Part shown: in pieces, positions 31,251-59,185 of the stretch
Layout: each line of letters starts with the position of its first letter
Numbering within the stretch: position 1 is the first letter of the stretch
From: Octopus sinensis
Lineage: Eukaryota
Assembly: GCF_006345805.1 (NCBI RefSeq)
Contig: NC_043012.1
Span: 11,594,001-11,658,000 of the forward strand
Direction of reading: 5' to 3'
DNA: 64,000 nt
The notes under the pieces: generated by a model
The model's input: only the letters and a program-made list of their open reading frames with translations
Told to the model about the DNA's origin: nothing
The model's database searches: none
Program-made: the position numbers and the translations under genes

Positions 31251-31520
31251 ATGATGATCTGCCGATCTGAAAAGAAAGGTGACTTAAAAACGTCAAATTT
31301 AGCTTGAGCATCCTGTATACATCAATCGAGGAACCTGAAATGAAATGGTTTTCTCAAGAATACCTACCATACGCGCTCGCTCAAGAATTGAACTCATGAT
31401 CTGGCGATCTGAAAAAATTATAAAAACTCGTCAAATTTAGCCTGAACACTCTGTATACACCTATCGAATCCCTTGATCGATTTCATGTAATTGTTATGTA
31501 ATATCTATTTTACATTTCAG

Positions 31521-31748
31521 CAAACTGTGAAAACGTTAACTGCGGAGCAAACAAGGTCTGTCGCATGCGAGGAGGGCAACCGCGCTGTATTTGCGCCCCG
31601 AATTGTACACTGCCATCCCGCTTCCAGAACTATCGTGGTAAACTATGTGGTTCTGACGGCAAAGAATATCGGAACCATTGCAGTCTACTGAAATATAACT
31701 GTCGACATAGAAAGTCCGTCAGCATTGCTTACTTGGGAGCGTGTCGCA
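31521..31748 (+). CDS. FST: Follistatin exon 3, FS module 1 (EGF-like + Kazal)
   Basis: ttcag| and |gtgag, 228 nt. Reads NCENVNCGANKVCRMRGGQPRCICAPNC...LCGSDGKEYRNHCSLLKYNCRHRKSVSIAYLGACR with 10 Cys. Confidence 0.95.
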
Positions 31749-31791
31749 GTGAGTTTTCTTTACCATCTTGTTTGGTTTTCGTTTGCAGATA

Positions 31792-31826
<35 letters not shown>

Positions 31827-32334
31827 TACACACACACACACAACACACACATATATATAGAATCTTTTCCTCTTCATGGGCAGTTCGATTAATTAATTTT
31901 CTTTAACTAAACACTTTGCATACTGTCAACATATTAAACACTACACCAACACTCTTATCCATCTAATTACTGCATTGTATCTTTCAGGTTTTCTGTATCG
32001 CTTTTCTTGAGTTATCTCTTTCATTGCCCCCGAACTTTTTGTAATCATACAACATCCACAGAAAAGCTTGACACCACAGACCTAATCTGCATGGGTTCCT
32101 TGAAAGAAGATCTTCAGATCGTCTTCCAGGAAGACCATGCCAACCTTATCTCTTAACATCAAAAAGTAACTCACGAACTACTCATAACAAGAAAACATTA
32201 CTACACTTCCCATCAGACATGAGTGGCTCTCTTCTCTCTCTTTCTTTTTCAATCACTCATGCGCAGACATACACACACAAAGCGACACACAGACACACTC
32301 AACTTTCATAACACACACACACACATACACACAC

Positions 32335-32366
<32 letters not shown>

Positions 32367-32424
32367 CACGCGCGCCGAGGCAGACAGCCCGACAGACAGA
32401 TAAATAAATAAATAGATAGAAAGA

Positions 32425-32461
<37 letters not shown>

Positions 32462-32517
32462 GGATGGACGGACGGACAGATAGATAGATAGATAGATTGA
32501 CAGACAGACAGACAGAC

Positions 32518-32555
<38 letters not shown>

Positions 32556-33089
32556 ACAGACTGACAGAGATGTGTGGGTGCGTCTTCGTGTGAATTTATG
32601 TCTTGGTATATACAAATATATAAAAGCCATATATATTTGGAGCACTGTCATCATTAATTCCACATTTAAATGTAATATCTGCGTCGTATGTTAGTAAAAA
32701 CTTTCGAAACCACGGATGACAAAATAATTGTTTCTTCGTTTTTTCCTTTTATTGTATCGCATTTAATTGTGTTTATAAAATATTCAAATTTTATGTTATG
32801 TTGGAACACTATCATTATTAAAGCTTTTCCATAATAAGATGCATTGTGTTGGTGGTACTATTCTATTATATTCGCCGACTGTACAATAATAAAAGCGTCA
32901 AATCGGTTACTAACTTCAATAAACTGTACTCCTACACGCAGATACGTGGTGATACAATTACCAACGCATTTTCTTGACTGTAAAAGTCGACATTAATGAT
33001 AACCAAAAGTTCATCCTCAATCCAACTATTTTATTTCACATTCTTTATTAATGCATTGTGATTATTTATCTTTTTGCTTGCTGAGTGAA

Positions 33090-34200
33090 AAGGGAAGCGC
33101 AGTGTTCGAGACCTTTGCTGGACTTCCAGAACCAGTGAGGTTGACGCCATCTTTGATCCGTTTAAACTGTTGCACGTTGACATCTTCAAGAAAGACACAA
33201 GCCGGGAGAAAATTCCAGAGGGCCAAAGTTATGGGGAGGAAAGACTGAGTATTATAGTTAACAGTGGGGTGCAACAGGTGTGAAGAGAGGGCCGTGGGTC
33301 CCAAAATGATGGAGGTACAAGATCTGCCAACTCCAAAGAACAGAGGCTGTAAAAGTGGTGATAGAAAATACAGAGAAGAGACAGTATAGCTGTATACCAG
33401 GGGCTATAATGTGTCCGTTTTAGTGTTTGAATGCTCGTGACACAAGTGGATCTTCTCTAAATGCGGTCCAAATGTCTGTGAGCGTAACAGCAGCACTATC
33501 CCAGGTGTAGGAGTAGTACTCCGTTGTGCCTCTCACTTAAACCTTGCAGAACGTCAATAGTTGCTGGGGATGGAAATATTTTCTTGCCCCGAAGTTTTGG
33601 AGATGCGATTCTAGTTATGATAAGGACGTGACCAGTATTTGGAGCGACAGTGATGGCTCTAACTGAGAGCCACTCATGTTTGATGGGAAGTGTAGAAATG
33701 TTTTCATGATATGAGTAGTTCGTGAGTTACTTTTTGATGTTAAAAGAGATAAGGTTGGCATGGTCTTCCTGGAAGACGACCTGAAGATCTTCTTTCAAGG
33801 AACCCATGCAGATTAAGTGTGTGGTGTCAAGGTTCTCTGTGGATGTTGTGTGAATACAAAAAGTTCGGGGACAATGAAAGACCATCAGATAAGTCATTGT
33901 TTTATAAAACCAAGAAAGTGGGGGACAAAAGCTATCTTTGAGAAACTATCAAATTGATAGAGAGTGGGTCAGAAAGGGCTTCGTCAATGAATGTGATAGC
34001 ACTATATGATAGGGATCTGTAAGATTCTATATGATCTAATTTTTTCCCTAGTTACTGACTGAATAATTATAATTCCGGACTGCTCACCTTAGTTTTGTTG
34101 TTAATCATAGAAAATTTCCTCGGTCATTGCCCTTGCATAGTAATGTGGGGCTAGAGTCCTTGCAACTAATTTGATCACGGTACAGTTTCGATGTCTGATT
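33090..34200 (-). mobile_element. Decayed LINE RT fragment (CR1/L2/Jockey-like)
   Basis: Remnants EYYSYTWDSAA and SFLPITLALWNFLPACVF..NVQQFKR. Confidence 0.6.
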
Positions 34201-34305
34201 GAGCAAATTCTTTTGGCTCGCTCCTTTTGCATTTCTCTGTCATTGAAGCAGTTAATTACATAACTATATCAGTATAGCTTCGGTAATATAACTGTCTCAT
34301 TCCAA

Positions 34306-34893
34306 AAGGCGGCGAGCTGGCAGAATCGTTAGCACGCCGGGCGAAATGCGTAGCCGTATTTCATCTGCCGCTACGTTGTGAGTTCAAATTCCGCCGAGGT
34401 CGATTTTGCCTTTCATCCTTTCGGAGTCGATTAAATAAGTACCAGTTACGCACTGGGGTCGATGCAATCGACTTAATCCGTTTGTCTGTCCTTATTTGTC
34501 CTCTCTGTGTTTAGCCCCTTGTGGTGAGTAAAGAAATAGAAATAGGCATTTCGTCTGCCGCTACGTTCTGAGTTCAAATTCCGCCGAGGTCAACTTTGCC
34601 TTTCATCCTTTTGGGGTCGATTAAATAAGTACCAGTTACGCACTGGGGTCGATATAATTGACTTAATCCGTTTGTCTGTCTTTGTTTGTCCTCTCTGTGT
34701 TTAGCCCCTTGTGGGTAGTAAAGAAATAGGTATTTCGTCTGCCGCTACGTTCTGAGTTCAAATTCCGCCGAGGTCGACTTTGCCTTTCATCCTTTCGGGG
34801 TCGATAAATTAAGTATCAGTTGCGTACTGGAGTCGATATAATCGACTGGCCCCCTCCCCCAAAATTTCGGGCCTTGTGCCTAGAGTAGAAAAG
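34306..34893 (+). mobile_element. SINE type B, tandem trimer (Meta-SINE-like core)
   Basis: aaggcggcgagctggcaga head; the core gcctttcatcctttcggggtcgataaattaagtaccag occurs three times. Confidence 0.85.
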
Positions 34894-34955
34894 AATATAA
34901 CAGTCACGTTCTAATCCATTTTCATTATTGTTTATTTATTTATTTTCTGTTTTAG

Positions 34956-35180
34956 ATTCATGCCAAGGTGTCAGCTGCTACAGCACCAGAAAGCGGTGTA
35001 TCGAGGATCGCACGACATTACCTCACTGTGTCTATTGTAACCAACGCTGCAGTCCAAACCAAATACGACGTTATCTCTGCGACGAAAACGGCAATACGCA
35101 CAACAGCTTCTGTCATCTCATATCAACAGCTTGCCAACAAGGACGCAGTATCAGATTAGCATACCATGGACGGTGTCGAG
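34956..35180 (+). CDS. FST: Follistatin exon 4, FS module 2
   Basis: tttag| and |gtaac, 225 nt. Reads SCQGVSCYSTRKRCIEDRTTLPHCVYCNQRCSPNQIRRYLCDENGNTHNSFCHLISTACQQGRSIRLAYHGRCR with 10 Cys. Confidence 0.95.
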
Positions 35181-35436
35181 GTAACAGGTTTACATTTTTT
35201 CTCAGTTTCTTTCTTTTATTTTTTTTTTCAGTATATTGATGAATCTACAATACTATCTAAAAAAAATAAATAAAATGCTTTCTAATCAATACTTAAACCA
35301 GATGTGAAGACGAATCCAATAAGTCAACTGGTAACAGTTTAAATTTCCATTACCCTATTTATAGCTATTTCTCGTTTCATTAATCAGTTAAAAAATGTTT
35401 TCCTGCCTTTTGAAGTTTACTTTACACAACTCAGTA

Positions 35437-35854
35437 CCTATTTCTTTACTACCCACAAGAGGCTAAACACAGAGGGGACAAACAAGAACAGACATAGGTA
35501 TTAAGTCGATTAGATCGACCCCAGTGCGTAACTGGTACTTAATTTATCGACCCTGAAAGGATGAAAGGCAAAGTCGACCTCGGCGAAATTTGAACTCAGA
35601 ACGTAACGGCAGACGAAATACCTATTTCTTTACTACCCACAGGGGGCTAAACATAGAGGGGACAAACAAGGCCAGACATAGGTATTAAGTCGATTAAATC
35701 GACCACAGTGCGTAACTGGTACTTAATTTATCGACCCTGAAAAGATGAAAGACAAAGTCGACCTCGGCGGAATTTGAACTCAGAACGTAACGGCAGACGA
35801 AATACCGCTAAGCATTTCGCCCGGCGTGCTAACGTTTCTGCCAGCTCGCCGCCC
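35437..35854 (-). mobile_element. SINE type B dimer
   Basis: Reverse complement of the type B unit twice; TSD ttacacaactYagta. Confidence 0.85.
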
Positions 35855-36166
35855 TTACACAACTTAGTATCTTTCGATAACATCGACACTGAATAAAACA
35901 ACATTTCCCCTTTTAACAAAGATCCCATGTTTTGAAAGAGAAATGATTTGATTGTTACACCTTTCCCAAAGGCATTAAGGATGTAACTAAAGTTAAATTA
36001 ATCGAACGTCTTGTTTGAAACCGTATTGCTGACTCGGCTTGCTGAGAGCTTATTTCTTGTTATACAATACACGACACTTTACTCTCCTCCATAGTTGTCC
36101 TTGACAGAGCTTAGACTCAGAACGTGGATGTTCAAAATTAAATCTTGTAAATAATTTAATTCATTT

Positions 36167-36555
36167 AAGGCGGCGAGCTGGCAGAAACGTTAGCACGCCG
36201 GGCGAAATTCGTAGCCGTATTTCGTCTGCCGCTACGTTCTGAGTTCAAATTCCGCCGAGGTCGACTTTGCCTTTCATCCTTTCGGGGTCGATAAATTAAG
36301 TACCAGTTACGCACTGGGGTCGATGTAATTGACTTAATCCGTTTGTCTGTCCTCGTTTGTCTTCTCTGTGTTTAGCCCCTTGTGGGTAATAAAGAAATAG
36401 GTATTTCGTCTGTCTTTACGTTCTGAGTTCAAATTTCGCCGAGATCAACTTTGCCTTTCATCCTTTCGGCGTCGATAAATTAAATACTGGGGTCGATCTA
36501 ATCGACTGGCCACCTCCCCGCCAAAATTTCGGGCCTTGTGCCTAGAGTAGAAAAG
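36167..36555 (+). mobile_element. SINE type B dimer
   Basis: TSD aataatttaattcatt on both sides. Confidence 0.85.
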
Positions 36556-36716
36556 AATAATTTAATTCATTAGCCTATTAATTCTGCGACTATGCAGGCA
36601 TATTAAGTAACAACAATCGCATTTCTCTTTTATAGTTCTGATGAATTATTAGCAAAGAAATCAATGATTTATTGCCGTATGTTTTTGTCTTATTTCAAAC
36701 TTTATCTCATTTATAG

Positions 36717-36944
36717 AAAATGCCAATTGTAGTAACATTGTTTGTCCGTCTGGCAAGACGTGTCTAACCGATCCAAGAAATGGCCGCCCTGTGTGCTACG
36801 CTTGCAACCGCCATTGTGAGCATGTGCCAAGTGTTAGAGTGTGTGGCACAAACAACCGCACTTATGAGAACTACTGCGATCTCAGCGCCAGTGCTTGCAA
36901 ACAGGGAATTTATATTAAAGCTGTACATGCAGGGAGCTGCAAAT
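36717..36944 (+). CDS. FST: Follistatin exon 5, FS module 3
   Basis: tatag| and |gtaagt, 228 nt. Reads NANCSNIVCPSGKTCLTDPRNGRPVCYACNRHCEHVPSVRVCGTNNRTYENYCDLSASACKQGIYIKAVHAGSCK with 10 Cys. Confidence 0.95.
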
Positions 36945-37399
36945 GTAAGTTGTATTTTTTTTTTCGGAACATTACTTTTTGTTATTATTCTTTCCTTTTA
37001 TTTCTTGAAACACAAGTTGACAATATGTGGAAATGAGACAAGAGGTGTTTAGGAGATAAAAAAAGTTGTTTAATGAACCCGAATGTGGTAATCCAGTAAT
37101 AATGTTGTGTCATTCTTCAGTATCCTACTAAGTTGAAAACAACTCTGAAAATTAATGATAACTAGCTTAAAAACCGTGCCCCGTACGGACTTTTAAGCTA
37201 GCTCCTACGAAGGGCTAATTGCGCCTGTGGCTCAAACTAAGGGAGCAATAATAAAGCATTTATTGGTACCCTACTAATATGGTATTATTCTAAATTCAGT
37301 TTAAATGAAAAATTTGTAAATTCACAAATGCTTGGAGTTCCCTTAAAATTTGAATTTTCAACTGTTAGCGCATAACAAATCCTCATCCAAACCTGATCC

Positions 37400-43538: not shown

Positions 43539-44204
43539 TATCTATATATTGAACCAGCATGGTCACAGCCAGAGGGCTAGAATGCATAAAGGAATAAAGG
43601 AATATGTATATATATATAAACGACGGAGGCATTATTAATACTGAATGGCAATCTTTATATCCTATTTAAAGTGGTTGTGTTATTAGAACGCCGTAATACT
43701 ACGGTATTCGTTTGAGAGGGTCTCTCATATAGACGTGCGGTGCTAAGAGCCAAAACATGTCGTAGAAGACGATGTATGTATGTTTGTATGTATGTATGTA
43801 CGTATCAATAAATCGAAGAAAGTCAGAAACATTTGATTTCGAAACAACTAAATCCGCAATAACAACAAATATCACAGTCACTACATATATGCATACACAC
43901 ACACATACATACATACATACATACATACATACATACATACATACAACATACACACACATACATACATACATGCATACATACATACATACATACATACATA
44001 CATACATACATAATACATACATACATGCATACATGCATACATACATTCATTCATACGTACATACATACATACATACACACATACATACATACATACATAC
44101 ATACATACTTACATACATATATACATACATACATAAATACATGCATACATACATAAATACTTACATTCATGCATATATGCATACAGACATACGAGAATTC
44201 ATGC

Positions 44205-45420
44205 AAGAGAAATGAGCAACACCCAATTACCATTTCTTGACATAATGGTAATTAAAAACAACAGCACAAACACAACTGGTATCTATTACAAAAGCACAGA
44301 TACACACCAGTATCGAAATTTCAAATCATGTCACCCAACACACACAAAACGCAACATCCCGTACTGTCTAGCCAGGAAAATTTGTACTATAATAGATTAT
44401 TCAAATACCAGAAACACACGACATATAGAACTTAAACGATTTCTGCTCAAGCAAAATTACCCTATTTTATTTATAGAAAATAGCATACAACGAGCAAAAG
44501 AGATGCCTGTAGAACAACTTTAAGCAACACGAAAAACACGAACCCGCCAAAGAAACACAATATCATTCTTAGTAATACACAATCCACATCAGCAAAACAT
44601 TTTTAACATCACCAAAACAGATTTGCCAATCATGAAATAAAGTGAAAAGCATAGCTAATCAAAAAGCAACCTGAAGAAACTATTAAGAAAGGCAAAATTC
44701 AAAATGAACGAACGAGATAACACATTCACAGTATCCAAGTGATAACAGACGTGAGACGTGTCAATACATGCATAGAGAGATAGAACAAATAGCCATTAGA
44801 ACAAAAAATGGACAGATATTCGCCAATACAAATATGATATGCAAAAGCAGAAATTTGATCTATTGCATTAAATGCCCGAATTATGAGGAATTATATATAG
44901 GTGAGACAGGGAATGCATTATCGGAACGCTAACGAGTCCACAGACAACAAATCCGGAACACCAACGTTTGCCAATTCCATTGAGCGAACATATAGAGGCA
45001 TGTGGTCAGAAAATGTTTCTAATTTTTCTTTTCCACAAACTACATGACAGAAATGAGATTAGCAGAAATATAAAGAAAAACGGTTTATTAAAATGCTCAA
45101 ACCTGTTCGGAACGGAAATGACTGCAATAAAATAACAACCAGTTAATGATGTGGATGAATAAATACAAACAAGTTACAGAATATCGGAACACCAGGAAAA
45201 CCGTGATGTTTAAGAGTAAGCGGATTGATCAAAAAGGTATTCGAAAAATTCAGCTGGTTGGAGCGTTCTAAGGGGTACTAAAGTTATCAAGGACTCAACT
45301 GTCAGTTAAACACGTTTGAAATCTGATGAGTATACCATGTATGAAAGTGCTAATTTTGTTAAAACACCATAAAAAAAAACGTGAAAACCAGACTATGTTG
45401 TAATCTTTATTCAACTGATA
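44205..45420 (+). mobile_element. Penelope-like element (RT C-terminus, GIY-YIG, terminal repeat), decayed
   Basis: Reads LPFLDIMV..YYKSTDTHQY.NFKSCHPTHTKRNIPYCLAR and CKSRNLIYCIKCP..YIGETG..RVHRQQI. Confidence 0.85.
45317..45358 (+). ncRNA. Degenerate minimal hammerhead motif downstream of a Penelope ORF
   Basis: UGAAAU-CUGAUGA-GUAUA-cca-UGUAU-GAAA-GUGC-UA-AUUUUG. Departures from the ideal look like C>T decay. Confidence 0.55.
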
Positions 45421-48832: not shown

Positions 48833-49120
48833 TTACGCACCAAACATCAAATTAGGGTTTCTAGTTACAAGGTCATCGAATTTAGATGATTTAGGAACAC
48901 ATTGTTGTTTGTTTGACACTCCGTAACGTTGGATTTTTAGTTCCCCGTCGTCGAGCCTTTCCATACGAATCGCGTTTCTGGATCCTACGGAGGGATCTTC
49001 ATTGAAATAATTAAACGGTAGCAGAAAGAAGCTGTGATGTTCTCCGACTGTCGGTATCACCGGTAAATCCTCCATGTGTGGAATTCGGTAAGATCCAAGG
49101 GTTACCCAAACTACCAAATC
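48833..49120 (-). CDS. Copper amine oxidase homologue, terminal exon (aa 689-783)
   Basis: ttttgtag| acceptor. Reads DLVVWVTLGSYRIPHMEDLPVIPTVG...FFLLPFNYFNEDPS..., matching the AOC C-terminal DLVAWVTxGxxHIPHxEDxP and LRPYNFFDEDPS motifs. Stop at 48833-48835. Confidence 0.92.
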   Translation of the reverse strand, partial: DLVVWVTLGSYRIPHMEDLPVIPTVGEHHSFFLLPFNYFNEDPSVGSRNAIRMERLDDGELKIQRYGVSNKQQCVPKSSKFDDLVTRNPNLMFGA

Positions 49121-49417
49121 CTACAAAAGATTTTAAAAACAAGAGATATAGACATAAATGAATCTGCTAAAAGACCGAATGTAGAATGAAGGAAACGGGT
49201 TATATAATGTATGCAAGAAACTAACGATGGCTATACATATATACACACATATATATGGATATGTATAACCTATATTGTAGATACGTAAAAAGGACTCATT
49301 TAGCTATATTTCAGTAGTATATATAAAAAAATCAACAAACAAAAACATTGGGGACATTTTCTGTTCGGCTGTAACTGTGGAAATTTTAAATTAGTGAAAA
49401 GTTTAAAATTTGATGTA

Positions 49418-50054
49418 CCGTAAATCCTCGAGTATAGTCCGCCCTTGAGTATAATACGCAGGGGATTTTTAGGGGGCTGTACCTCTGAAAAAACCTAAAA
49501 CTTGTGTATAATACGCAGACTTGTCACACGCGACGGGAGTTGTACGATATAACCGCACAAGGTAGCAATAGCCGGACACTGAACAAATGCATTCAGGACG
49601 GTTTCGTCGCTCAGTACGTACCTCGAACAAGTCCGTATAACAGAATATCCGTATCTATAGAGTTTATTTCGAAACGGTAGCACCTCCTGTAGCATGCCAG
49701 GCCAAGGACATTATTATTATTATTGTATATATAACATAATGCAAACGTGTAGCTTTTTTTGTGCATTTTGTTTGCAGAAAATAAAGAAATAACAGTAATA
49801 ACGTTTAATAAATGTTGCTTATTGCAAGTTATGGATGATTCTTTTATGACTTCATTGCTTTCAGGCTTAGCTTAAGGTAGTTTCGCGCCCGACATCACAA
49901 AATGCATCTGAATAAACATTGCCGGACAGCAAATAGAGACTCGGACATTGCTTCGAAAATAATTTTCATTTTTAACCTCGTATATAGTACGTACTAGGGA
50001 TTTTGACCCTTAAATTTTGGGAAAAAAATGTGGATTATACTCAAGGATTTACGG
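49418..50054. mobile_element. Non-autonomous Tc1/mariner-superfamily (Tc2/pogo-like) MITE
   Basis: TA|CCGTAAATCCTCGAGTATAGTCC ... GGATTATACTCAAGGATTTACGG|TA: terminal inverted repeats with a TA duplication. Confidence 0.8.
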
Positions 50055-50418
50055 TATTTATGTAATTTTCCACGCGGAATCTCAGGAGATAATTTACTTT
50101 TTCCAGAACAATTCTTTAAAAGTTACAGGGTTTTAAAGTTTGATGATTTGGAAGATGTCATTTTGTGCGTGAGAGCGCATTGTCAACTGCAACCAAATGA
50201 AATATTGACGGTATTCTGCTTTACGCACGCCATATAACATCGCATAAACTGTTTTTTCTTTTGAAATTTTCAGAAAATGTTTGCGAATTTGTATTATATA
50301 CACGGAAATTTATACGATTAAGCAAAAACGAAACAACAAAATTTTTCGAGCAGGAACGACTCTGTGGTTGCTCACACGTGACTAGCGGCTATCTTTCTTA
50401 TACACACACACACACACA

Positions 50419-50485
<67 letters not shown>

Positions 50486-50605
50486 ATACATATATATGTA
50501 CATATATATATATCAGTGCGAATGATTTTGTTAAGCGGTGTCGAGTTTTACAATTCTGTAAATAATAATAATCGTATTTTGTTTATACGCTTAAAGCTTA
50601 TAGCA

Positions 50606-50770
50606 ATCACCGTGCAAATGGCTAAGGAAAATAGTCTAATAATGCAGCATATAAGCCCTCGACAGAAAAAATAGACTTTCTCGTACGCGTGGGGGAAAGC
50701 CTACTTTTTACTGTCGAGGGATTATATGCCGCATTATTAGACTATTTTCCTTAGTCATTTGCACGGTGAT
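50606..50770. repeat. 165-bp near-perfect palindrome (MITE-like); related half-copy at about 178-293
   Basis: ATCACCGTGCAAATGGCTAAGGAAAATAGTCTAAT...ATTAGACTATTTTCCTTAGTCATTTGCACGGTGAT. Confidence 0.85.
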
Positions 50771-50787
50771 ATATATATATATATATC

Positions 50788-51165
50788 TTTTACTTTTTAC
50801 TTGTTTCGATCATTAGACTGCAGTCATGCTGGGGCATCGCATTGAAGGGTTTTGAAAGTACCTCTTCTATCAGTCCCTTTTGTTGAACCGCTAGGTTACG
50901 GGGAAGTAAACGCACCAACACCGGTTGTCAAGCGGTGGTGGAGACAAACACAGATACAAACACACACACGCACATACGCACACACACCTATATACGACGG
51001 GCTTCTTTTAGTTTCCATCTACCAAATCTACTTATAAGGCTTTGATCGGCAAGAAGCTATTGTAAAAAACAAAACAAAAAACACCTGCCCAAAGAGTCAC
51101 GCAGTAGGACTGAACCCGGAACCATGTGGTTGGGAAGCAAGCTTCTTACCACAACAGCCCCGCCT
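50788..51165 (-). mobile_element. Diverged SINE type A
   Basis: Similarity to the other copies. Confidence 0.7.
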
Positions 51166-52230
51166 GTTATACATGTACAGAGAGAGAGAGAGGGGGGAGG
51201 GAGGAGAGTGAGAGTAGAAAGAATGAATACACGTCATCAAGGATATATTTTGCAACCCAGTTGATGCATGTTGTGATATGCATATTTAATCGATCCTCTT
51301 ATTTAATCAACTAAATTGCCATAGAAAGAGATGAATTAGGCGTCATTCTGTTAGCAAAAGCGATCGAGTTCACGACAGTAAACTCTGACTGACAAATATT
51401 TCAATGACCAGTACTCATGTCAAAGGGATAATGCGATAAGTTTATCAGAAATCCTTAGAAATGATATTTAGTTTTATTTTCAGGTCAAAATAAGATTGTG
51501 ATTTATTCCGTGTTGTCCTTAGTTGCCCTCGTATAACGCACATTTCTTGAGAACTAACATATATGTTATATACTAAGATAGTTTATAAACTGACAGATAT
51601 TGTATCGATTCTTTAGTTTATTATAGTTTTATTTTACTTTATTTTTATATAATTTTATTTCCGTTACTTAAAGTCCTCTATCAACGAAAAGAATATGTTC
51701 CTTAATGGATAGTATATTTCTTAATAGATAATAATTTTCATTTATAGCCCTAATTATTTCAGCCTGTCTTCTTCGATTTACTGGGTGTACTTAATGACAT
51801 CATGGATTAAGTTACAATTACTCACACACACACTTTACTAGACAAAATACATGTTTTATGTGCTACTAATAATCTCTTGTACTGAGAACATGCCAAACAG
51901 TTTTATAACACGTCTGACATCTCGGTACAGTCATCTGGCACAGCCCACATGGCATAACGAATTAAAAATTGAATGAAAAGACAGACGAGAAAAAGCAAAA
52001 AGGAAATATATAGAAAAAGTGGAAGGTTAAAATACCGGAAAACGAAAAAGTAATCAGAGAGAAGTAAACTTATAAAAACATTTATCTCCCTTAGACCGTA
52101 AAGTATAGGGTTGGAGAACATAGTGACTTGGAATTTATGGTACAAGTTAATCAAGTGTAGGAGGATCTTCCCAATTCTTCAATCCTTCAAGCCTTATAAT
52201 TGTATTGTAGTGTATAACTGTAGTATAGCG

Positions 52231-52329
52231 TACACTACACACATGTACACTACGCACTACACTATATCCATGTACACTACACACATGTACACTACGCACT
52301 ACACTATATCCATGTACACTACACACATG
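52231..52329. repeat. 42-bp tandem repeat, about 2.4 copies
   Basis: Unit TACACTACACACATGTACACTACGCACTACACTATATCCATG. Confidence 0.85.
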
Positions 52330-53344
52330 CTCATGCACACTGGAGGTGGTACTGCATTTATGAGGTCCTCCCATAGTAACGAGATCAATACGTTTGCGTT
52401 TTGCCTCTTATAGCTTCAGATCGATGTCTACCAGGAGAACAAGAGCAGGAGAAGGATTAGTGGAGGGTTTACGACTGAGTTACATTAAATATGATAGGAG
52501 ATAAAGAAACCAGTGGCTATGAGTGGTCTTGATTTTTAACTTCATAGTTAAGAGCAGTGGATGTTGTAGTAGTAGTAGAATAGGTTTAGAGATGACACAG
52601 ATGATCTGTAGCTTAAGTTGGGGGGATGGTGGAGCTTATGGCGATAGGGTGAGTTTTGTGTATATGAGACAGGTGTTAAGGACGTGGGGGTTGCGTTGGA
52701 AGTGGATATACGGTAAGTATCTGATGGATGTAGAGACAATGGTAGTTCGACGGCGACTGGATTTGGAGGTTGAGAAGGGATTTAAAGATATTTTGAGTGT
52801 CTTTGTGTCGATCAGGACCTTGTGGAGTGGATGATATTAATTACTGAAGAGCATTAAAAAAAAGGTAAATGGTTCTGTTCTACATTAGAAGCGTCAGAGT
52901 GAAGTTGAGAACTGAAAACAGTTGCGAATATTGAAGTAATCAAAGACAATGAGTTAAAAACGTTGGGGGAAGTGAGGTAGAGATCCACGATGGAAGAGGG
53001 CCGGCAGATTTTGAAGAACAGTCGAATCAGCGCGTGAATCTAGGAGGAATGAGGGAGATATAGTCTGAATCAAAATGACAAGTCTCGTCTCTGTTAGGCA
53101 CGTGGCAGTGAATAGTTGAAGGAAGCGAGCGTCTTGAAAAAGCACAAAAGTAACTTTCAGCATGAAGTTGGAATTTAGAATTTGAAATAGATGAAAACGA
53201 AAGATAAGAAGGTGAAAGATTGGTGTCAGCGAGGAGCAGGATGTGTTACTTGAGTGTTAGCAAGGAGTGATGTGCATCAGCCAGGTTGGCCAGAAGTCCA
53301 CGGACATGCGCACACACACACGCGCGCGCTTTTATTCATTTGTT

Positions 53345-53675
53345 CTTTTATACGTTTCAGCCCGAAGGCTGTGGACATGCTGGGGCACCGCCACTGTAAT
53401 CACCTCTTCAATGGCTAATCTTAAGTGATTAGCTTTTGGTGAAGAAGGGCGTTCGACACTGCTGCCCTCTTTTGCGTCTCCAGTTTTGATATTGGTTCAT
53501 GTGGGACCTTGAACAACAGGAGGTGAAGTTGTTTCTTGAAAACATCTACCCCCACTCCATGAAGATCCCCCAGATGTTTTGGCAAGGTATTAAATACCTG
53601 TGGGCCCTTGAATCACAAGCTGTTGACATGATCCTCACTCTAGATGGGACAACTGGGACTTTTGGAACAGTGCAT
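53345..53675 (-). mobile_element. CR1/L2-type LINE 3' end
   Basis: Reads FKGPQVFNTLPKHL..VDVFKKQLHLLLFKVPHEP; same family as 3355-3606. Confidence 0.7.
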
Positions 53676-53725
53676 CATATATACATACATATATCCATAC
53701 ATACATACATACATACATACATACA

Positions 53726-53757
<32 letters not shown>

Positions 53758-55269
53758 CGAATAACTGTATAGGGGATTGAACGTGATTCATATTTTATTG
53801 AGATTTTATTGACTGTTCAGACTAAATGTTTGCAAAGAGGAAGAAGTGTCCACGATTTGTCAAAAACCAATAATTTGGTCTCTTTAGGTAGGACAACTGA
53901 GTGTGACTGAGGGTGTGCCTCCGGAAATCCTCTCTTGGCAGAGACACCAGTTCTAGCTAATAGGGCAGTCATCCGAGGTGTTACACACGTGACTGGGCAC
54001 GCATTTTGCGATCTCTAGTAAAAAGTTTTTCCACACACAAATTCTGACAAACAGAGGTGCTTCGCCAAGGAAAGCATATAGGCAAAAAAGTAGTCGTACC
54101 TTAAAAAAAATTGCAGAACATGAAATGTACTCTTAAAAACTAAACAAACACAAAATTATCATAATAAATGGAAGAAAGGAATACTTTTCAAAAATAGCGT
54201 TATATTTGAGTTTCTTTGATTTTCTCACTATTCTATAATATTGAACACATTAAAAATCAATTTTGGAAATTATTATAAAGCTACGTAAAGATTAGGTAAG
54301 AAAACCAGAGTAACTTTGTACTTTGGCATAATTAAAATGTGATTAATGTTGAATATTGGTTTCAAATTTTTGAAACAATGCCAGCAATTTCGGGGGAGCG
54401 GGTAAGTCGATTATATCGATTCCAGTGTTCATTTAGTACTTATTTCTTCGACTCCAGAAGGATGAAAGGCAAAACTGACTTCAGTAGCTTTTGAACTCAG
54501 AACGTAAAGACGAATGAGATGTCGCAAAGCATTTTGCCCATCGTGCTAATGAGTCTGCTAACTCGCTGCCTTATCGACGTAGAATATTGGCATATTTTTG
54601 TCATAAAGATAACCATTTCTGTCTCCTCTGCTACGATACATGTTATCATTGTTGCTATTCCTGTCTTAACACAGGAAATGTTGCGTAATCTAACATTGCT
54701 GTAACGTAGCAGCCGTTCTTCTCACATCTGTTTCAACTGACCATTAAAATGGCATCCGAAAACGTTTGATTCCATAAATTATTTACAAGATTTCAAATTT
54801 CTTGGGATTTAAAAAAAAAATTTTGTAGATTAAAAAACGATGAACAAAATAAAAAGTAAAGACATTGCACAATATTCGTTCTAGATTTACAAAACTTCCG
54901 GGAAGTGACTGGGTCCTGGGACTAAACAGCAGCAATAACAAATGTAACATCAACAAGAGCAAGACAAACACTAGCGGCAGCGGCAGCAACAACAACAACA
55001 ACAAGTTATTACAAAAATAACGACAATCTAGCTTCTGCTGCCCTAACCGCTTCATCAGAACTAAAGATAAGGAAACTGAAAATAATCTTTGCGAGATATT
55101 GTCTGCAGATGGAATTGATTGGTTTCAGACGACAGTTATCAGATATATAAAACGGAAGTTAAACACAAGCGTTTTGTTGAGAAATATAAGAGAAAGAGGG
55201 AGAGAGAGAGAGAGAGAGAGAGAAGGAGTGGGTATGTTAGCCAAAGAAGGAAGAAGAGTGAGTGGAAAG

Positions 55270-55310
<41 letters not shown>

Positions 55311-55719
55311 AAGCGAGTGAGAAAGATCTGTCATAAGAATTTATGGAAGAGACAGAGTGTATGTGCGTGTGTGTATGTGTGTGTGAGTGAGTGTGTGTGA
55401 GTGTGTGTGTGTATTTGTGTTTGAGAAAGAGAAAGAGAGAGAGAGAGGTGAGAGAGAGAGAGAAACAGACAGATGCGAAAAAAGAGTACAAAAGTGAGAG
55501 AAAGAGAAAAAGAGAGAGAGAGAGAGGAATGGGGAAAGAGAAAGATCGTGTGCGTGCGTGTGTAAGCCAGAGGAGGAAAAGTGGATGGAGCGAGAGAGAG
55601 TGAGACAGACAAACAGACAGACAGAAAGTGAAAGATCTGCTGTAAAATATAACTTAAGAGAGAAGTATAGAAGAAAGAGAGGGGTGGAGAGACGATGAGA
55701 GGGAGTTAAGAGAGAAATA

Positions 55720-55955
55720 TCTATTTCTTTACTACCCACAAGGGGCTAAACACAAAGAGGACAAACAAGGAGAGACATAGGTATTAAGTCAATTACATCG
55801 ACCCCAGTGCGTATCTGGTACTTATTTAATCGACCCCGAAGGGATGAAAGACAAAGTCGACCTCGGCGGAATTTGAACTCAGAACGTAGTGGCAGACGAA
55901 ATACTGCTGCGCATTTCGCCCGGCGTGCTAACCACTCTGCCAGCTCGCCGCCTTG
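55720..55955 (-). mobile_element. SINE type B
   Basis: Full-length copy. Confidence 0.85.
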
Positions 55956-56094
55956 AAATTTTAATTAATCAAAATTTATTTAATAAAGAATGCTATATGT
56001 AATCAGTAAAACAGTAACAAATGTGGATATATTTGGGTCTGATTAGACCTCGGCTTATCTTGTAATTTACCTACAATCGAAAAAAGATGCTTAC

Positions 56095-58158
56095 CTGATC
56101 AACTATGCTCTCGTCATCATCAATATATTTCTGAAAGTCAACAAGTGGTCTCAGGCCATCATACGTTACATATTCAGAACTGCTACGAGTCTCATTGTCT
56201 TTATGGACAGTTACTGCTAATTGGTATCGACTCCAGGATCGACTTCGTTCAGTGCCGCGATCAAGGGGTAATAATTCTTTGCTCATTGAATTAATTTGGA
56301 TTCTATATGATCTAGGAATACCTTGTTCGGTTCTAAATTTGTCGTTGCTAAAGACTAAATATTTCGGTCTAGAAAAGTCAAATTTGTACGCAGCTTCCTT
56401 TTCTGTAGAAACAAGTTTTCTCCTAAATTTATTTTGATAATAATATTTTTCACCTCCCCATTTTCGGTTGTCAGTTTTATCACCTTCAATATTTAACATT
56501 TCAAATCGATTTTTGATCCCTTTGATGTCTATATCAATTCGGTAATTGAATAAATACTGGTGAATATTTCCGTGTAAGTGTTTATGGAGGTGATTACCGT
56601 AACGTTTTTCATCGCTTTTAGGGTAGGTCCCCATTATATAACCTGTGGGGATGCTACGAACTTCCACTGCCCCGTTCTGGTGGAAAACAAAGTCAAAAAT
56701 ATAATCGCGGTTGATCACAGTTGTGATTGTTCGAAAGACTAAAACATCATCCATCATTCCTGTATAGAATCTTCCAGATCGTTTTGTTGAAGAATGGTGC
56801 CGTCGCAGAGGAATCCCAGTGTTTTGTTCGAAAACACAGATTGAAAATGGGTTCTTTTCAACTATGTCTTTACTTCGTTCAGAAAAATAGTAAGTTGGGA
56901 TCATCAAAGAATGTTCTGGACAATCGGCACCTGGTATCAGACCGTTATTTGTTCTGCCGTACATAGCAAAGCTATCATAATAATTGGCAAGCATTGTTCC
57001 TGGATTTTGTCCTGAATAATGGACAGCTACTTCTTGGAGACTAAGTTCATAGATAATTCGTTCTTCCTGATAGCGTATATTAAATAATTGAGGCCCTGTA
57101 ACTGGGGATAGTCTATAGATAAATTTCCATTTCATATATTCAATTTCTGACCCAACAATCCGGTACCTTTTACCGTCTGGCTCTGTTTGGTAAACACGGC
57201 GTTGACCTGTAGTTGGAAAGGTTTCGCCTCGTAAATTTGCTGTAGAAAATAAGTTTCCATTCTTAACAGGAAATTTCCTCCGCACTTTTTTAACAGATGG
57301 ATCGTTTTGATAACGGTCAACAAATTCTGTGATAGTTTTGAACAGTTGCCCTTCGTACCAAATTGCCTTTATTGAGAAATCCGTCGGATTGTTCCCTGTT
57401 AAATCCAATAAAATATTCATGTCCAAAGGGTAGAGAGAAGAATATTCCATCTGATAGGAAAGCATGATCCACTTCAGTCTTTCTTCGGTTCTGGTAATGG
57501 TAGAAGAAACAGGTGTTGCCAAATAGAATGTCAGGCATCGGGCTCCACAGTTTAACAAAGAAGAACCGTAACTTTCTCTCATTATTCTACCCAAATCTCG
57601 TTCTAATATATAAATAAATCGGTCGTTTTCAACGAGCCACTCTGTCTCGCTAGCAGGTCTAAAAGAAAATGGGACTGTTGTTTGTAAGGTATGCTGTGTC
57701 GGCTCAGGTAGGGGACCAACATTATACTCTTCAACAACAGGTTTTCTTTTGTCTCCACGAAAGATAACAACTTTAGCGTTTCTTTGCGGCTGTCCAGCCC
57801 TACCTTCTAAATAAGCAACAACTTCAGATTTCTTGGGTAACATTAATTCGATATTATTCACGTAACTAACATTAATACTGTTGACTTTCTCTGGATGCAC
57901 GATATTTAAATCGGACTGGTTTTTAACGTAATCGAATACTGAACGTATTTCTTTGGGTGATAAATCCGCAAATATTACAGGTTTCTCTGGATTAGCGATT
58001 ATATAACTGGCAAGACCTTCGTTACACACTTCAGCACGTAATCGCTTTAACTCGATCACTGACAGAATTGAAAATGTCACAAAGCCTACAATTAGGCCAA
58101 GTGTGAAAACAAAGAACACAGAACCGCATAGTTTCCAATTACATTCTTTTTCCGTCAT
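56095..58158 (-). CDS. Copper amine oxidase (AOC/VAP-1-like) homologue, large coding exon (aa 1-688); probable pseudoenzyme
   Basis: An acceptor ttttcag| directly precedes the ATG; the donor is CAG|GTAAGC, phase 0. There is an N-terminal TM anchor and AOC motifs (FADLSPKEI, VGPLP, GPQLFNIRYQEERIIYELSLQE, CVFEQNTGIPLRRH, WSRYQLAVT). The active-site motif reads NRDY instead of NYDY, and HQY instead of HxH. Confidence 0.93.
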
Positions 58159-58729
58159 CTGAAAAACAAAACAAAAAAAAAAACGTTATTCAAGAATATA
58201 GTGTGGAATTGAGTTGATAGTATATCATAAATTCATAGAATATAGGGGATAACCGATTTAATCCCGACTTGGACAAGATTTGAACTCCGAAATAGAAGAA
58301 ACTAAATACATAGAGATATACGCATGCTCAAATGAAGACATATACAATAGAAATACAAAATGGCTGACGGTTAGTAAGGAGAGACACACAAATAAGAAAG
58401 AAGAAAGCAAAGGACCACTGATGCGGTCACAGGAGTGTGACGAAAGAACTCTTGCCGAAATAAGATTAAGATTAATGCAAAAAATAAATAATGCTGAAGC
58501 AAAGTAACACACCAAATATATAGTGCGTGTGTTTTTATTGGCTAAACTGTCAAAATAACCATTCCTAAATACAACAATAAACTAAATACTGTTTAGCATT
58601 TAATCACTTTCTGTCATTTGGCTGCGTCTTTCACATTAAATATTGTAATTTATTCCCTTTGTAATTTATGCAATCACTAAGCCGTGCACCTCCTGTCTGT
58701 CTGTCAATCTATCTCTACACTTCTTCCAT

Positions 58730-59185
58730 TGATGTGCTTGGATTCCGTTGGTGAGGAAGCTTTAATTATGTTGGTCAAAAATGTCAACAGTAGATGACTT
58801 CATCCTCACAGCGACACTGGTTCCCATCCAAGTGTTTTTTCATGTTGGGGAACAGATGATAGTCAGTTGCGGACGAATCAGGAGAATAGGGTCGGTGTTC
58901 AACACAGTTATGCACAGCAACCATTGAAACTAATGGTTTGTATGCTGGAGCATTGTCCTGACGAAACAAGATCCCTTTCGTTCGTTTTTCTTGGAGTTTG
59001 GTCTTGATAGCCTTTCGTAAATGCCTCTGCAAGTTAGTATAGTACTCTCCATTGAAGGCGTGACCTTTTTAGAGATAGGCAATAAACACAATGCCTTTTG
59101 CACCCCACAAATCACCTTCCCTGCAGATGAAATGACCTTGGAGTTCTTTGGAGTAGGTGAGGAGGGGCGTTTCCACTTCATGGAG
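58730..59185 (-). mobile_element. Mariner transposase fragment (pseudogene)
   Basis: Reads WKRPSSPTPK..SAGKV, ILFRQDNAPAY and HRPYSPDSSATDYHLFPNMKKHL; frameshifted. Confidence 0.85.

Follow-up and report, generated by a model that had tools for sequence, protein, structure and literature searches.

An octopod copper amine oxidase gene with its catalytic residues replaced in an intact frame: a probable membrane pseudoenzyme

Gene structure and predicted fold

We analyzed a 64,000-nucleotide stretch of the Octopus sinensis genome (contig NC_043012.1, positions 11,594,001 to 11,658,000), hereafter the window, whose minus strand carries a two-exon gene related to the copper amine oxidases (AOCs). 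A first, sequence-only reading of this DNA had described an uninterrupted frame of 783 amino acids with canonical splice sites; joining the two exons through the GT-AG intron indeed gives a single 783-amino-acid frame with one terminal stop (Table 1). A protein database record of 783 amino acids carries the name 'putative amine oxidase [copper-containing] [Octopus sinensis]' and is 100% identical across the exon-1 query. The Pfam N2, DUF1965 and enzyme domains of copper amine oxidases (PF02727, PF09248 and PF01179), which form the D2-D3-D4 set, are all detected above family cut-offs, PF01179 with a score of 348 bits for a cut-off of 27. A splice-acceptor-like tract lies immediately 5' of the ATG, and contigs from sequencing runs continue for 210-245 letters beyond the 5' end of exon 1: an additional exon upstream of coding exon 1 is therefore likely.

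The protein has a single strongly hydrophobic segment at about residues 14-32 (hydropathy peak 2.54, for the window starting at residue 14), and its structure model has an N-terminal helix at residues 8-40. Both fit the type II transmembrane anchor suggested earlier, and surface display in the type II orientation is predicted. The model is confident (predicted local distance difference test 91.2, predicted template-modelling (TM) score 0.89) and finds its best match in human diamine oxidase, AOC1 (TM score 0.84/0.92, root-mean-square deviation 2.5), so that the copper amine oxidase fold is predicted to be intact, in keeping with the well-preserved frame first described; a confident model built on an alignment of active relatives speaks for compatibility with the fold, not for stability. 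AOC1 (PDB 3hi7, 3mph) is also the top PDB match by sequence (E 1.6e-106). The two proteins share the D2-D3-D4 layout, the Asp base and the second-shell Tyr, but AOC1 has the topaquinone (TPQ) cofactor and three copper His where the octopod protein has Arg484, Tyr535 and Arg700, and the octopod protein has an N-terminal membrane helix. Human AOC1 is secreted.

Table 1. Features of the octopus AOC-like gene in window coordinates
Feature	Position	Strand	Evidence
Coding exon 1 (residues 1-688: anchor, D2, D3, most of D4)	56095..58158	-	translation, Pfam, alignment
Coding exon 2 (residues 689-783 and stop)	48833..49120	-	translation, Pfam, alignment
Phase-0 GT-AG intron, full of simple and interspersed repeats	49121..56094	-	splice joining; contig loose ends
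Predicted N-terminal membrane helix (residues 8-40), putative type II anchor	58039..58137	-	hydropathy and structure model
Tyr381, conserved second-shell tyrosine, kept	57016..57018	-	invariant in 65/65 intact and 4/4 octopod rows
Asp395 (GAT), catalytic-base position, kept	56974..56976	-	alignment
Arg484 (CGC), replacing the TPQ-precursor Tyr	56707..56709	-	codon and alignment; Gln in Argonauta and one 91% octopod-type record
His533 (CAC), the sole copper ligand that Octopus retains; Argonauta has Tyr	56560..56562	-	alignment
Tyr535 (TAT), in place of the second copper His, which Argonauta retains	56554..56556	-	codon and alignment
Arg700 (CGA), replacing the third copper His (human AOC3 His684)	49085..49087	-	common to three Octopus species and Argonauta

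Loss of the cofactor tyrosine and copper ligands

In active family members, TPQ is made autocatalytically from the Tyr of the motif T-X-X-N-Y-D/E, and copper is held by three His described as strictly conserved (PMC3382800). The octopus protein reads T-V-I-N-R-D, without the precursor Tyr, and has His533 as its only copper ligand, with Tyr535 and Arg700 at the other two positions. The replacements are in register with the human proteins. TTVINRDY aligns on N-Y(TPQ)-D-Y, INRDY facing VYNYDY/VYNXDY of human diamine oxidase free of gaps, and GNIHQY aligns to its GNIHTH. The first 54 residues of exon 2 align to residues 673-726 of human AOC3 (full-length chain 1pu4), so that Arg700 falls opposite His684, a copper ligand of human AOC3 (PMC3548902). 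Asp395, at the catalytic-base position, and the second-shell Tyr381 are both present. The codons reported in the sequence-only reading for Arg484, Tyr535 and Arg700, and the retention of His533 and Asp395, thus stand after alignment to both human proteins. Because the Tyr is gone and a single His is left, family chemistry (PMC3382800) agrees with the initial view that neither TPQ formation nor amine oxidation, with its yield of H2O2, is to be expected.

These losses contrast with the state of the remainder of the protein. Among 65 full-length homologues picked for intact motifs, 45 columns are invariant, the five active-site columns by construction. The positions lost, 484, 535 and 700 in Octopus and 484, 533 and 700 in Argonauta, are all cofactor or copper positions. 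None of the 39 invariant columns beyond the active-site set is lost in three octopod proteins, against a mean loss of 0.29 when intact rows are omitted in turn. Of 158 columns conserved at 85%, the octopus query keeps 147, inside the range of the intact rows (1-21 lost). Six luminal cysteines and the sequons N96 and N655 match those of intact orthologues, and Asp395, Tyr381, Tyr393, Asn483, Asp485 and Tyr486 are kept in all four octopod rows. Active AOCs are obligate homodimers, joined through D4 arms, and have peripheral metal (Ca) sites. D542, D544, E586 and D689, putative Ca-site residues by comparison with human AOC1, are invariant and kept; the structure model is that of a monomer. Residues 1-55 are 84% identical between Octopus and Argonauta versus 79% for the rest, the intact pair having 65% versus 82% (Fisher p 0.048). 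We considered a special constraint on the anchor after the loss of activity, and dropped it: the active paralogue is equally flat in octopods (93% versus 93%).

Splicing and purifying selection

Twenty of 24 listed sequencing runs, from eight studies and none recorded as RNA, contain half or more of the words sampled from the exon. Four runs were aligned over positions 56000-58300, the fourth spanning only 56210-57732. In three of the four (X1, X6 and X8, from three studies), contigs end at the exon edge, 56094, and their loose end uniquely matches 49090-49119, the start of exon 2; these molecules were therefore spliced. Single contigs span exon 1 end to end in runs X1 and X8. Expression of the gene is argued from this spliced junction in contigs only. 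No alternative letter appears in the four runs at the codons of Arg484 or Tyr535; the codon of Arg700 lies beyond the covered part, as the loose end stops at 49090.

These contigs bear on the trivial explanation, an assembly error or a restoration of the catalytic residues by RNA editing. Spliced contigs carry the genomic codons at 484 and 535, and not the Tyr or His that would have undone the sequence-only reading; the residues are identical in three Octopus species; and A-to-I editing, as first pointed out from the codon table, never produces Tyr or His through A-to-G changes in CGC, TAT or CGA. We consider the chance of such an artefact negligible.

Exon 1 shows 23 letter differences, a mixture of polymorphism and close-species divergence, of which 19 are synonymous and four replacement, for about 476 synonymous and 1588 replacement sites. 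The resulting ratio of replacement to synonymous differences per site (pN/pS) is 0.063 (binomial p 2.6e-9), or 0.05 without two sites common to all runs. The gene is under purifying selection; the case is made by these exon-1 differences together with protein identities. A ratio of non-synonymous to synonymous substitution rates near 1, the signature of a young pseudogene, is thus not what we see, and the frame has no internal stops. One may still propose a gene in decay or weakly constrained, whose function has been lost and which persists through inertia: it evolves faster than the active paralogue and has suffered three active-site losses. However, the frame is open and of equal length (783 amino acids) in Octopus and Argonauta, pN/pS is low, identity to O. 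bimaculoides (96%) is comparable to that of the third paralogue (94%), and the structural invariants are untouched. This reading is largely refuted and we regard it as very improbable.

Distribution in cephalopods and phylogeny

We write the five active-site positions in the order Asp/TPQ/His/His/His (395/484/533/535/700). O. sinensis, O. vulgaris (99% identity) and O. bimaculoides (96%) all read D-R-H-Y-R, two further octopod-type records at 91% read D-Q-H-Y and have no exon 2, and Argonauta hians (79%) reads D-Q-Y-H-R. All eight octopod records examined have the dead pattern. In Argonauta it is the first His of the HxH motif that is gone, and Arg700 is the only replacement residue common to the whole octopod clade. 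The check proposed in the sequence-only reading, whether other cephalopods share NRDY/HQY/YRIPH, comes out positive for O. vulgaris and O. bimaculoides, which have all three losses, and only in part for Argonauta, with its Gln, its Tyr-x-His and the same Arg. Likewise, of the two new Arg side chains singled out in the sequence-only reading, Arg700 is found again in Argonauta, whereas Arg484 is not: there, Argonauta and a 91% octopod-type record have Gln.

The 11 records of the two nearest clusters, one of them from Sepia pharaonis, are 56-63% identical over aligned parts and canonical wherever covered, six of them over all five positions. Two trees (62 and 28 rows, hand-picked from the matches; quick search, with only Shimodaira-Hasegawa-like approximate likelihood ratio (SH-aLRT) support) place the octopod rows in a clade (SH-aLRT 100) which is sister to these intact Sepia-type rows (SH-aLRT 100). 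The octopod stem is long (0.41-0.50 changes per column versus 0.11-0.13). Judged from these sequences, the octopod AOC and a membrane copper amine oxidase of cuttlefish type are orthologues. The S. pharaonis 'AOC1' (CAE1290654.1) and its grouped records share the cysteines and main sequons of the octopod protein at the 56-63% identity given above; the S. pharaonis protein keeps NYDY, HQH and HHIPH, from which it is predicted to be active. A duplication followed by loss of the live copy is a possible alternative history, disfavored because only three AOC loci were found in the genome. Short fragments from further octopods gave 13 matches, none close (best 46%), and none of the matches could be assigned by name to a cirrate, Vampyroteuthis or Nautilus; the loss is therefore not datable more finely.

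A gene whose catalytic residues are gone from an intact, expressed and conserved frame is what is meant by a pseudoenzyme. With a spliced junction, purifying selection, a dead pattern in every octopod record and a sister Sepia-type clade that is intact, we conclude that octopods (Octopus and Argonauta) very probably hold a real, selected AOC pseudoenzyme, dead but maintained, as the sequence-only reading had proposed for this locus.

Other AOC genes in the octopus genome

A genome search detects three AOC loci only: the dead gene and two others on contig C2. One of the latter is canonical (NYDY, HAH, YHIPR) and has intact orthologues in Argonauta and Sepia. The C2 paralogues are 37-40% identical to the dead octopod AOC and fall in other branches of the tree. 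Octopod copper amine oxidase activity must derive from these two genes.

The third octopus AOC (L003:1195-3210 on the minus strand and L006, in genome G000, C2 at about 145.78-145.82 Mb) has S-Y-D-Y for N-Y-D-Y and retains all three His; its branch in the tree is very long. No decapodiform orthologue of it turned up in the homologue search.

Since both C2 genes encode the Tyr and all three His, the dead protein might be a regulator, forming heterodimers with the intact C2 paralogue and lowering or localising its activity. A precedent exists in the human adhesion protein VAP-1 (AOC3), whose inactive splice form without His684 heterodimerises with VAP-1 and reduces its surface level and activity (PMC3548902). 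The VAP-1 case, however, involves two products of one gene, whereas the octopus proteins are only distantly related members of different tree branches; in a bacterial copper amine oxidase, moreover, a dead subunit is reported to leave the live one unchanged (PMC4497604). We thus hold this regulatory role to be improbable.

Inactive AOCs in other animals

The TPQ column was inspected in the best 120 of 188 homologues: 110 have Tyr, nine another residue and one a gap. Among the best 150 representatives (50% identity), eight were dropped for motif gaps and 19 of the remaining 142 lack the TPQ Tyr, some of which may be pseudogenes or misaligned. Five of ten dead clusters checked for names could be named: Lottia, Owenia, Sinanodonta, Batillaria and Hydractinia. 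Records without the TPQ Tyr include P0091, P0095, P0277, P0284, P0323, P0324 and P0377, in Bulinus, Biomphalaria, Lottia, Owenia, Sinanodonta, Batillaria and Hydractinia. A bivalve clade of scallops, ark clam and oyster (P0072, P0080, P0083, P0081, P0086 and P0116/P0256; SH-aLRT 100) has neither the catalytic Asp nor copper His and is mostly without the TPQ Tyr as well; the scallop proteins read NQD, as does Argonauta. This clade is possibly an older pseudoenzyme family. It lies, as do the snail rows, on branches separate from the octopod clade.

These sequences indicate that dead AOCs arose repeatedly in invertebrates. As in the octopod protein, the frame of these other animal AOCs is full but without the TPQ Tyr, copper His or both; unlike the octopod protein, they have mostly lost the catalytic Asp too, and sit on separate branches where placed. 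The octopod case is less singular than the sequence-only reading implied, since Tyr-less AOCs also occur in bivalves and gastropods as well as in one annelid and one hydrozoan; it stands out by its clean live sister clade and its demonstrated selection. Pseudoenzymes are common, and for this reason, and with dead AOCs recurring in invertebrates, the surprise is moderate.

Literature searches revealed no description of other dead animal AOCs, nor any paper for six accessions. We found no description of the octopod gene either, as judged from listings with few subscription papers and no supplements (the tables of PMC12058724 may include octopod AOCs). In the accessible portion of that family survey, molluscan copper amine oxidases form one clade, and the only copies mentioned as missing active residues are plant fragments (PMC12058724): Arabidopsis AtCuAO epsilon1 and epsilon2, said to miss essential active residues and to be fragment copies of another gene, in contrast to the complete and conserved gene of octopods. 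Copper amine oxidase is listed among shell matrix proteins (PMC4660305, PMC8059625), and what it does in molluscs had, according to one of these reports, yet to be studied (PMC4660305). All named octopod records carry an amine oxidase label, an annotation that our results correct.

Possible functions of the inactive protein

A retained non-catalytic role, as first proposed, agrees with a gene that is dead but selected; for the particular role we can offer only inference. Our leading candidate, advanced tentatively and somewhat short of an even chance, is a protein that acts at the surface as a scaffold or in adhesion, without catalysis and with its pocket sealed. In the simplest order of events, the Tyr would have been lost and His700 changed to Arg on the long stem of Octopus and Argonauta. 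Once copper binding had ceased to matter, independent His-to-Tyr changes would have followed, at 533 in Argonauta and at 535 in Octopus. Arg700 may substitute for the charge of the missing copper, and Arg or Gln at 484 may pair with Asp395; the pocket would then be closed off and the packing of the D4 core maintained. The Arg/Gln alternation at 484 and the lineage-specific HxH loss fit such a filling of the pocket rather than new chemistry. In that case the functional face would be the exterior of the folded dimer, which would bind a partner in the manner of the enzyme-independent adhesive side of VAP-1/AOC3. An enzyme-independent adhesive mode of VAP-1 is reported (PMC6306676), and the VAP-1 mutant Y471F still supports granulocyte rolling (PMC5125647).

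VAP-1 is, as predicted for the octopod protein, a membrane-anchored AOC, but identity is about 30%, with no evidence of shared ligands, and the octopod gene is not an AOC3 orthologue: it sits in the molluscan branch. VAP-1 is an active enzyme whose dead forms are engineered (Y471F) or spliced (VAP-1 delta3); in octopods, a complete gene is inactive in the genome itself, throughout a clade.

Several points weigh against a sealed scaffold and the reasoning behind it. The VAP-1 precedent is partial, adhesion by Y471F being substantially reduced (PMC6306676). The gene evolves faster than the active paralogue, with identities of 79% versus 93% between Octopus and Argonauta and 58% versus 77% between Octopus and Sepia. 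The bivalve dead clade has dispensed with the Asp that all four octopod rows keep, and the retained Asp395, Tyr381, Asn483, Asp485 and Tyr486 would fit a ligand-binding pocket equally as well as a sealed one. Finally, the reference set was selected for intact motifs, and the trees rest on hand-picked rows and a quick search.

Retention of the pocket residues speaks for another hypothesis, a non-catalytic amine binder or sensor, in which the channel and Asp395 would catch a biogenic amine or a peptidyl-lysine/arginine and, instead of oxidising it, either buffer it or retain a ligand at the surface. All six residues are kept in octopods, while the dead AOCs of bivalves and snails are mostly without the Asp, and D4 is the best-conserved large domain (83% between Octopus and Argonauta, versus 69-72% for D2 and D3). 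Yet every other invariant column is kept too, which makes the retention unspecific; D4 is likewise best conserved between intact orthologues (87%); Arg484 of Octopus would likely neutralise Asp395; and a cytoplasmic tail of about seven residues leaves little scope for signalling. We find this role unlikely. The same low standing goes to a bolder scenario, in which the octopod ancestor would have turned its sole copy of an ecto-amine-oxidase lineage, intact in cuttlefish, into a surface receptor whose channel and Asp395 hold amines or protein Lys/Arg. If true, octopods would possess a natural 'adhesion-only VAP-1', and the repeated births of dead AOCs would point to a hidden binding function general to the AOC fold.

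Still less probable than the regulatory role considered above is new chemistry in the old pocket, through either a metal-free acid-base site (Asp395/His533/Tyr535/Arg700) or a weak metal site using His529. Arg700 and His529 are common to the octopod rows and absent from Sepia-type rows, and the octopod stem branch is long. But Octopus and Argonauta have different residues at positions 484, 533 and 535, where a catalytic set should be conserved, and His529, four residues from His533, is not a known ligand position.

Whatever its precise role, the cuttlefish enzyme, predicted to be live, and the dead, selected octopod orthologue (about 58% identity) form a natural matched pair in which a non-catalytic function could be singled out. 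The separation of enzyme-dependent from enzyme-independent functions is a named open issue for VAP-1 (PMC6306676).

Neighboring sequences in the window

At 31502-37033 on the plus strand, three exons with one Kazal_2 domain each form a gene, presumably follistatin-like, that lies tail to tail with the AOC-like gene and is usable as a synteny marker. At 58738-58924 on the minus strand, a broken transposase-like remnant, which we assume to be mariner-like, matches the N-terminal extension of the 850-amino-acid O. bimaculoides model P0124; in view of this match, the extension is probably a gene-prediction artefact. Open-frame fragments at 44137-45132 on the plus strand resemble a retroelement reverse transcriptase tail and a GIY-YIG nuclease.

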